Notes under the pieces: model-generated
What the model was told of the DNA's origin: nothing
The model's input: the letters and a program-made list of their open reading frames with translations, nothing else
Databases searched by the model: none
Made by a program: the position numbers and the translations under genes
Source of the DNA: a virus
Lineage: Duplodnaviria > Caudoviricetes
Length of the DNA stretch: 64,000 bases
Direction: 5' to 3' (one strand)
IMG/VR virus record: IMGVR_UViG_3300013901_000005
Coordinates: 64,001 to 128,000 of that record
In this document: piece by piece, positions 27,765 to 29,658 of the stretch
Numbering within the stretch: the stretch's first letter is position 1
Layout: each line of letters opens with the position of its first letter

Positions 27765-27822
27765 CTCCTCTGGCGTATATTATTAATACAAATATTAATA
27801 TAATTAAAATTGCGGTTACCAT
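27757..27822 (-). CDS. Small hydrophobic membrane peptide (21 aa)
   Basis: MVTAILIILIFVLIIYARGDD; fills the gap and overlaps both neighbouring genes. Confidence 0.4.
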   Translation of the reverse strand: MVTAILIILIFVLIIYARGDD

Positions 27823-28472
27823 TGTATCCAGGTTAAACAATTTACGTTATTCTGTATCTGATATTCTATTTTTGATTTTAATTCCAAAAATGATATTGGC
27901 CTATAATAGTTAAAATCAACTCCTACGTCATATTGATTTGGGAAAAGTAATTTTAACCTTTCGAAATCCTTTCCAGTATTCTTATCTTTAAATACATTTA
28001 AATGAACGTGGCCAAATAATTGCCAAGGCTGATTATTCTTTTTATATGTACCATCAAGGCATAAATATGGATAATGATTTAAATATATTTTTTGATCATC
28101 AATTATAAGTGTCATTTGCTCACTAACTCCATCAAAAAGTTTCATTGTTTTCTCTCCAGGATATCGACTTCGATCGTGATTTCCTAAAATTAGATAATGA
28201 TAACCATTTAATTGATTCAAAAGTTCTTTCCAGCGCCCGTTTGAAGCAAATGCAAAATCTCCTAAATCAAACACGATATCATTAGGTTTGACAAATCTAT
28301 TCCAGTTTTGAATAATATTTGAATCCATATCCTCGGTTGTTTCCCAAGGTCTTTGACAAAACTTTAGAATGTTTTTATGTCCAAAATGCAGTTACAGGTC
28401 GGAGGTGAACCATATATTCACCTCCGACGACTTCAAAATTAAAGGTTTAACATTTTTAAATATATTTTCCAT
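27816..28472 (-). CDS. Calcineurin-like metallophosphoesterase with an in-frame TAA in motif I (candidate ribosomal stop-hop)
   Basis: ATG 28472 MENIFKN...IWFTSD-L-TAA-L-HFGHKNI, in frame with ORF 27816-28328 carrying LGD, GNHD, NHYP and GHVH motifs. Confidence 0.75.
28398..28428 (-). promoter_or_regulatory. Perfect 12-bp hairpin immediately 5' of the CTG-TAA-CTG site
   Basis: GTCGGAGGTGAA-N7-TTCACCTCCGAC. Confidence 0.7.
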
Positions 28473-29331
28473 AAATTTTTATAATTTTAGTTATATTAGA
28501 TGTGGATGTATTAAATTTTTTCGATATATCTTTATTTCTTATTCCAGCTTTATAAGCCTATAAGACTTTTTCTCTTAATCTAGATGCGATAACATATTTA
28601 CTAGTATAATTTAAATTAATAATATCCCATTTTCTAGTTAAAATAGGTATATTTAAACTAAGTATTTTAATTTTTAATTTTTTTAGATCTTCTGTATTTG
28701 AAATTACAAGATTAGCATATCCGCTAGAATTTAATCTAGTTAAATTTTTATCAGAAATCATATTATTAAATTCTTTTAAAATAGATATCCAACTAGAATG
28801 ATTTTTTATTGTTAAATAAAAATCTTTTCTATTGAATTGATTTTTAATGCTACCATCACCATCTATAAACCCTGCTAATAAAGCATAAGTTAAATCTATA
28901 TTAAATTTTAATATCGTATTTGGAGGATTATATGTTTTCTTATCCTTAATATCAAATTTTTCTTTTATTTTACTAACTGTATCTATATCTTTATAAGCTA
29001 TTGAAATAGATTTATCTGTAACACGAATCATTCCAGTATAATTTATAAATTTAGCAAATTTATATAAATGATTAGAATCTTTAATACTTAATGTCAATAC
29101 CAATCTATTATTACAAAAACATCCATCTGCTAGCAAAAACCCCATCCAATAAAATGCCTCTGGAGTATCTAACAATAAATTAGATAAGTTTGCACAATGT
29201 TTTTCTTTCTATTTTTCTTTGCCAGCACAACTTTTGCATATAGAATTGGCTTTAATAGCATGATTATATGTTATTTCATTTTTATATATTAATCTTTTTC
29301 CACAACTTAGACAAATTCTTTCAAATTTCAT
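28456..29331 (-). CDS. Free-standing LAGLIDADG homing endonuclease with N-terminal Zn ribbon and C-terminal HTH-like segment, 291 aa (2 in-frame TAG=Gln)
   Basis: YWMGFLLADG and LLAGFIDGDG motifs. Reading TAG 29209-11 and 28558-60 as Gln extends the ORF to ATG 29331 (CLSC..CKSC) and TAA 28456. Confidence 0.82.
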
Positions 29332-29415: not shown

Positions 29416-29658
29416 TCATTTTACCCATTCTTTTATTTTATCAACTGTCATTACTCCAGTAAATTTATCAACGACTTTATTATTTTCTATTTTTACAAGA
29501 GTTGGGATACTATGAATTTCATATTTATCAACAATATCTTCAGATGATGGATCTGTAGCATCTATTGATATATATTCTATTCCAGCTGATTTTAAATTCA
29601 TATCAAGGGCTTTGCATGGCCCACAGGTTGGTGAGAAAAATTTAATTATTGTTGCCAT
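29416..29658 (-). CDS. Thioredoxin/glutaredoxin
   Basis: CGPC motif, IPTL cis-Pro motif. Confidence 0.85.
   Translation of the reverse strand: MATIIKFFSPTCGPCKALDMNLKSAGIEYISIDATDPSSEDIVDKYEIHSIPTLVKIENNKVVDKFTGVMTVDKIKEWVK

Follow-up and report, generated by a model that had tools for sequence, protein, structure and literature searches.

Programmed translational bypassing has essentially two natural paradigms, phage T4 gene 60 with its homologues and the byps of yeast mitochondria. In T4 gene 60, a 50-nt gap within the MobA homing-endonuclease element is bypassed between matched Gly GGA codons, with a stop directly after take-off, a stem-loop 5' of the take-off site, a take-off (A-site) stem-loop, an internal SD and a nascent-peptide signal (Huang, 1988; Bonocora, 2011, as cited in Manning and Atkins, 2022, bioRxiv 10.1101/2022.08.31.505936). 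The gene 60 insert protects against MobA, travels with it and outlives it, and other endonuclease types can replace MobA (bioRxiv 10.1101/2022.08.31.505936). Pairing of the mRNA as it exits the ribosome is reported to drive forward bypassing (bioRxiv 10.1101/2024.12.09.627546). The byps of Magnusiomyces capitatus mitochondria are mobile, GC-cluster-like inserts of 27–55 nt in essential coding regions, present in many copies per genome and made harmless by bypassing between matched codons (Lang, 2014; Nosek, 2015). A 29-nt translational hop was also reported in plaA of Prevotella loescheii, but was never followed up (PMC5009743). Finally, in synthetic "stop-hops" in Escherichia coli, nine nucleotides specify one amino acid (Weiss, Dunn, Atkins and Gesteland, 1987; O'Connor, 1989), although with low efficiency and without stimulators. 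Natural stop-hops have been predicted since 1987, but a 2016 review states that no natural in-frame occurrence is known (PMC5009743), and a 2022 preprint states that no similar bypassing had been reported in other phages beyond the gene 60 homologues (bioRxiv 10.1101/2022.08.31.505936). Our literature searches found no description of the system reported here.

We analyzed a 64,000-nt stretch of a 155-kb crAss-like phage genome (hereafter, the window), in which a phosphoesterase gene is interrupted by a stop and a repeated Leu codon. Like T4 gene 60, this locus has matched codons, an adjacent stop, a 5' stem-loop, an insert near the 5' end of the gene in a conserved metal-binding region, and a homing-endonuclease gene directly upstream. 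As in gene 60, the distribution of the cassettes is patchy and polyphyletic with signs of co-conversion, cassettes persist after the endonuclease is lost, and different endonuclease types occur (a possible HNH in allele L092). It differs from gene 60 in that the gap is 6 nt (5–14 nt in sister cassettes), the codon is Leu CUN (or Thr ACY), there is no room for an internal SD, the stem ends exactly at the codon 5' of take-off, the endonuclease family is LAGLIDADG, and the endonuclease sits between genes and does not split the host gene, a calcineurin-like phosphoesterase. The 45 nt from the take-off codon onward folded no better than shuffled sequences (z −2.2 to +1.1) in 14 alleles, so no take-off stem-loop was detected. 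No conserved nascent-peptide signal was recognized, although function cannot be judged from sequence; the upstream peptides are 10–38 residues long and variable apart from the enzyme's own [VI][FWY]FTSD[LT], and they show no similarity to the gene 60 peptide. The codon–stop–codon arrangement is that of the synthetic stop-hops, but here it is natural, conserved in many phage lineages, and preceded by a strong stem. In the byps the codon after take-off is an unassigned sense codon and no homing endonuclease is involved. The plaA case concerns a cellular adhesin gene with a longer gap, in a host of the phylum Bacteroidota, which crAss-like phages infect.

The interrupted phosphoesterase gene and its neighborhood

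We first examined whether the interruption is real. On the minus strand the gene reads MENIFKNVKPLILKSSEVNIWFTSD-CTG-TAA-CTG-HFGHKNILKFCQRPW, and the stem GTCGGAGGTGAA/TTCACCTCCGAC is directly next to the take-off CTG (Table 1). The observation in the initial annotation, CTG-TAA-CTG with a perfect hairpin inside a phosphoesterase catalytic motif, was therefore confirmed, although it overlooked the in-frame ATG 24 codons upstream of the Asp and the adjacent homing-endonuclease gene. The 48 nt ending at the Asp codon fold at −23.5 kcal/mol (z = −6.0), and the 111-nt context gives z = −3.56. In the whole 155-kb genome, this is the only matched-codon/stop site with such a stem. The downstream motifs (GDFAF, GNHD, NHYP, and GHVH) are intact, the Pfam Metallophos family (PF00149) is hit with 25.3 bits against a cut-off of 21.5, phrog_547 (phosphoesterase) matches at 2e-42, and the closest structure is PDB 1xm7. 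Skipping 6 nt gives SSEVNIWFTSDLHFGHKNILKFC, which matches uninterrupted homologues residue for residue, and the D-x-H motif is intact only if the 6 nt are skipped.

Table 1. Features of the interrupted locus, in coordinates of the window.
Feature	Coordinates	Strand	Remarks
Phosphoesterase ORF part 2	27816..28388	−	Resumes at CAT (His of D-x-H); 190 codons plus stop; motifs GD, GNHD, H, and GHxH
Proposed landing codon	28389..28391	−	CTG
In-frame stop	28392..28394	−	TAA; TGA in relatives L001–L005 and L009, TAG in other lineages
Proposed take-off codon	28395..28397	−	CTG (Leu of the D-L-H motif)
Phosphoesterase ORF part 1	28395..28472	−	26 codons, MENIFKNVKPLILKSSEVNIWFTSDL; ATG at 28472-28470; ends at the take-off codon; aligns with the N-termini of uninterrupted homologues P0008 and P0019
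5' stem-loop	28398..28428	−	Arms 28428-28417 and 28409-28398; perfect 12-bp stem (8 G-C pairs; 13 bp with a U-G pair), 7-nt loop; 3' arm encodes F-T-S-D and ends at the last base of the Asp codon
Homing-endonuclease gene	28456..29331	−	Free-standing; 291 codons if TAG is read as sense; in-frame TAG at codon 41 (29209-29211) and codon 258 (28558-28560); last 17 nt overlap the start of the phosphoesterase gene
Thioredoxin gene	29416..29658	−	Directly precedes the phosphoesterase gene in relatives without the endonuclease, which marks the endonuclease as an insertion

The genome has 31% GC, and its nearest DNA matches are crAss-like phages. Positions 1–26000 of the window give long ORFs (up to 3208 aa) only if TAG is a sense codon, and the genome encodes a tRNA with anticodon CTA; TAG is therefore reassigned, whereas TAA and TGA remain stops. 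This accounts for the apparent stops in the endonuclease gene but not for the stop in the phosphoesterase gene. The endonuclease gene has a Cys4 N-terminus (Zn-ribbon), two LAGLIDADG motifs (LLADGCF and LAGFIDGDGS), and a C-terminal HTH, and it matches the phrog_4645 endonuclease at 2e-21. Its Pfam LAGLIDADG_3/_1 scores are just below the cut-off (21.2/22.5 and 19.7/23.1), but that of its homologue at locus L101 is above it (31.4). A group I intron with a distant exon 1 was rejected, because both halves of the motif flank the 6 nt and an in-frame ATG lies upstream. A start at the ATG in the stem loop behind GGAGGTGA was also rejected, because it gives a 12-codon ORF in another frame that lacks the Asp and is not conserved outside the crAss group.

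Distribution, selection, and stem structure of the gap alleles

Near-identical copies with the same TAA were found in three independent assemblies (L006–L008). The protein clusters P0003 and P0005 (169 aa, about 80% identical) are called from the internal Met, and their DNA (L001–L005) and locus L009 show why: the identical stem is followed by CTG-TGA-CTG. The stop is thus retained but has changed identity, and these relatives have no endonuclease. Uninterrupted homologues (P0008, P0019, and others) read SSEV[ND]I[WF]FTSDLHFGH. A search of viral contigs with the window protein alone found nothing, whereas an alignment query was successful. We then used a pattern that fixed only F-T-S-D and H-F-G-H and left both flanking codons and the middle purines free. 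It found six viral contigs, all of which are D-Leu-stop-Leu-H, and four of which come from unrelated phosphoesterase lineages, including one at 57% GC. A metagenome scan raised the total to at least eight very different lineages, with the codon sets CTG-TAA/TGA/TAG-CTG, CTT-TAA-CTC/CTT/CTA, CTT-TGA/TAG-CTT, CTT-TAG-CTA, and CTA-TAG-CTC. All 2 × 21 Leu codons are CTN although the pattern allowed TTR, whereas uninterrupted D-L-H genes use TTA in 4 of 8 cases and the uninterrupted group B relative L121 uses TTG. Each lineage has its own stem sequence, ending at or within 3 nt of the Asp codon. A scan of prokaryotic genomes with the Leu-stop-Leu pattern gave 0 hits, so no cultured prophage example is in hand, and a TAG-sense test on the short loci of lineages C, E, and H was uninformative.

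We next asked whether other gap lengths occur at the same site. A variable-gap pattern anchored on Leu codons found only 6-nt gaps plus two chance hits (L118 and L119), but anchoring on the 3' arm of the stem found phosphoesterase genes of the D-T-H type with 8 extra nt (ACC-TAG-GT-ACT and ACC-TAG-TA-ACC), 5 extra nt (ACT-TAA-CT and ACT-TGA-CT, in which the landing codon overlaps the stop), and 12 or 14 extra nt. All have matched Thr codons, a stop right after take-off, a stem of about −18 kcal/mol, and intact downstream ORFs of about 185 aa in the shifted frame. Four uninterrupted genes with the same 3'-arm codons have no comparable stem (−0.3 to −10.2 kcal/mol). Among 31 distinct gap alleles, 30 have a stop after take-off (TAA 15, TAG 11, TGA 4), and the codon pairs are matched or synonymous in 30, the exception being L147 (TCC/GCT); an apparent gap of 7 nt in L073 was a mis-registration of an uninterrupted allele and was excluded. 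The median stem dG was −18.6 for gap alleles and −6.6 for 41 uninterrupted alleles, although the alleles are not phylogenetically independent, the uninterrupted set is mostly crAss-type, and stems are weak (−7.6 to −12) in lineages E, F, and H and in allele L148.

Analysis of substitution rates indicated that the downstream ORF is under purifying selection. Among interrupted crAss-type alleles, dN/dS downstream was 0.08–0.18 with dS of 0.08–2.8 (0.10–0.13 for the window against L001/L003/L009), and in group B it was 0.04–0.08 where dS was not saturated; in the Thr-type group dS was saturated with dN of 0.05–0.35. The region between the landing codon and the first Met is also under purifying selection, suggesting that translation continues in frame right after the stop. 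Upstream dS was 5–10 times lower than downstream dS, and the core of roughly 60 nt is invariant. Because the 5' cassette moves laterally, part of the downstream conservation may reflect evolution before each insertion. The cleanest evidence of maintenance after insertion comes from the endonuclease-less TGA clade (L001/L003/L009), with dS of 0.27–0.30 and omega of 0.12–0.14.

In the crAss-type lineage, the stem shows four compensatory pairs at synonymous third positions, with 96% of cells paired, 0 of 500 shuffles scoring as high, and 35–48% paired in slid controls. It is invariant among interrupted alleles although the flanks have dS of about 1. However, this alignment includes uninterrupted alleles, some of which carry weaker, AT-richer versions, so the stem is not private to interrupted alleles in the crAss lineage; it either predates the insert or survives its loss, and may have another role. 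In group B the stem is nearly invariant, and covariation alone was not significant (one covarying pair). The closest uninterrupted relative, L121 (87% identical downstream), has a different N-terminal peptide and no stem.

Association with homing endonucleases

Homologues of the endonuclease (40–74% identity) lie directly upstream of gap alleles of both the Leu type and the Thr type. This was the case in 10 of 27 gap alleles with enough flank and in 1 of 40 uninterrupted ones (Fisher p about 4e-4, not independent); most gap alleles (17 of 27) therefore have no such endonuclease nearby, and allele L092 has a possible HNH/NUMOD1 ORF instead. Allele L020 is about 90% identical to the window from at least 280 nt upstream to about 40 nt downstream of the Asp codon, and is then 93–99% identical to the uninterrupted alleles L014 and L016. 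In a quick maximum-likelihood tree (IQ-TREE with SH-aLRT support), interrupted crAss-type alleles fall into two separately supported clades among uninterrupted ones; the all-interrupted outer clade in this tree reflects sampling, not biology. The mosaic allele and the two clades are what co-conversion during homing would produce.

Interpretation of the interruption

Based on these results, we consider that the 6 nt (TAA plus a second CTG) form a minimal programmed stop-hop cassette, as the initial annotation had proposed by analogy with T4 gene 60, although only some of the gene 60 signals are present. This rests on comparative evidence, without protein, ribosome-profiling, or RNA data; we put the probability of a productive hop at about 0.7, and its efficiency cannot be inferred. 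In the proposed mechanism, ribosomes translate part 1 and pause with peptidyl-tRNA-Leu on CUG in the P site and UAA in the A site, and slow termination gives the peptidyl-tRNA time to unpair. The 3' arm of the stem then lies in the E site and exit path; as it emerges, it can pair with the exposed 5' arm and draw the mRNA forward, and re-pairing at the next CUG places CAU in the A site, restoring SDLHFGH. The pulling role of the stem is inferred here; a driver role of such pairing is supported for gene 60. The insert most likely belongs to a mobile unit together with the upstream endonuclease gene. We infer that it would break the endonuclease's target, the conserved motif DNA of uninterrupted alleles, and would spread by co-conversion during homing, as in T4 gene 60/mobA.

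The main alternative is that the cassette carries an insert that simply inactivates a dispensable phosphoesterase gene, with no or only negligible hopping, and spreads by homing into intact genes faster than these decay. The 5' cassette does move laterally, the low upstream dS is as a recent spread would give, and MobA elements have been considered possibly mildly parasitic and mostly recent (Manning and Atkins, 2022). Nevertheless, we regard this as unlikely, because a neutral scar would not keep a stop right after take-off and a matched landing codon directly before CAT across gap lengths of 5–14 nt, no gap allele with a full-length locus has a frameshift or nonsense mutation in the downstream ORF, the endonuclease-less TGA clade diverged to dS of about 0.3 under constraint, and the divergence of the endonuclease copies indicates that the cassettes are old.

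Other explanations appear improbable. Readthrough giving D-L-X-L-H is compatible with the in-frame 6-nt insert, and the phage encodes a suppressor tRNA, but only for TAG, and in the TAG-recoded crAss clade the stop is TAA or TGA, never TAG. Two extra residues would also separate the Asp and His metal ligands of D-x-H, as established for calcineurin-like phosphoesterases, and the sister cassettes with 5, 8, and 14 extra nt change frame and cannot be read through. Termination followed by re-initiation, giving a two-piece enzyme, is equally doubtful, because the landing codons CTC, CTT, CTA, and ACT are not start codons and part 1 can be as short as 10 residues (allele L105). The stem abuts the insert and could in principle be a processing signal for removal of the 6 nt from the RNA or from a subpopulation of genomes, and RNA data to exclude this are lacking; however, no known bacterial or phage mechanism removes 5–14 nt precisely, there is no intron-like structure, nothing 3' of the take-off codon folds (z about 0), and matched codons with an obligatory stop are features expected of ribosomal re-pairing, not of splicing. 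A sequencing or assembly artifact has nothing in its favor, as the same allele is present in independent Logan, ENA, JGI, and IMG/VR assemblies.

A broader reading, which we consider somewhat more likely than not, is that phage calcineurin-like phosphoesterase genes host a widespread family of minimal "translational introns", 5–14-nt gaps at the D-x-H motif that ribosomes hop over, driven mainly by a stem that re-forms behind the ribosome, without a gene 60-style A-site stem-loop or nascent-peptide signal, and that are installed and spread by LAGLIDADG (and possibly HNH) homing endonucleases as self-immunity devices. The CTG-TAA-CTG of the window would then be a natural in-frame stop-hop and part of a second, independent endonuclease-plus-bypass system besides T4 gene 60/mobA. 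It would show that pairing a homing endonuclease with a bypass insert is a general way for selfish elements to enter catalytic motifs without introns or inteins, and the natural series of gaps (5, 6, 8, 12, and 14 nt), codons, stops, and stem strengths would bear on what is sufficient for take-off, forward movement, and landing. Gene callers currently truncate these genes to the internal Met: clusters P0001, P0003, and P0005 are called at 169–170 aa, and P0003 alone has 206 member sequences.

Codon usage in the phage genome and in the endonuclease gene

We found that the late-gene block opens only when TAG is read as a sense codon, which gives ORFs of up to 3208 aa, and that the phage encodes a tRNA with anticodon CTA. 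This is a TAG-recoded crAss-like phage of 155 kb. In contrast, the block that follows on the minus strand reads well in the standard code. The homing-endonuclease gene contains two in-frame TAG codons, the first of which, between the Zn-ribbon and the LAGLIDADG domain, is shared at the same position by the homologues at loci L020, L100, and L048 (47–74% identical). This may confine endonuclease synthesis to the phase when the suppressor tRNA is active.

Coordinates of the recoding features and of the ATG within the stem loop
Feature	Position	Strand
Late-gene block	window 1-26000	+
tRNA with anticodon CTA	genome C1:151589-151662	
Block reading in the standard code	window 26000-64000	minus
First in-frame TAG of the endonuclease gene	window 29209-29211	minus
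Second in-frame TAG of the endonuclease gene	window 28558-28560	minus
ATG in the loop of the stem	window 28411-28413	minus

Structured 5′ regions and the ATG in the stem loop

The ATG in the loop of the stem, 7 nt after GGAGGTGA (the 5′ arm of the stem), opens a 12-codon ORF in another frame (MVHLRPVTAFWT). The TAA/TGA difference is synonymous in that frame too, but this ORF is not conserved outside the crAss-type group. In the uninterrupted DSSKQGIW-type alleles L013 and L022, a different stem (−14 to −17 kcal/mol) lies a few codons further 5′. Structured 5′ coding regions may therefore be a general feature of this gene family, for unknown reasons.

Exceptional alleles and additional insertions

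The gap allele L145 (ATT-CATTTTTT-ATC, 11 extra nt) has matched Ile codons and the endonuclease upstream, but no stop after take-off and only a weak stem (−6.6). It may be a variant that uses a sense codon, or a decaying allele. In the gap alleles L096 and L100, the same phosphoesterase gene is broken a second time, 77 codons after the landing codon, by an insertion encoding a different LAGLIDADG-type ORF (...YVLGFLYADGS...). This insertion is probably an intron or another free-standing homing element, and the gene is thus a hotspot for such elements. Finally, L048 (FFVSDTHWSH) is the only uninterrupted allele with the full endonuclease directly upstream. Its motif DNA differs from the consensus at several positions, which might give immunity by substitution rather than by an insert.
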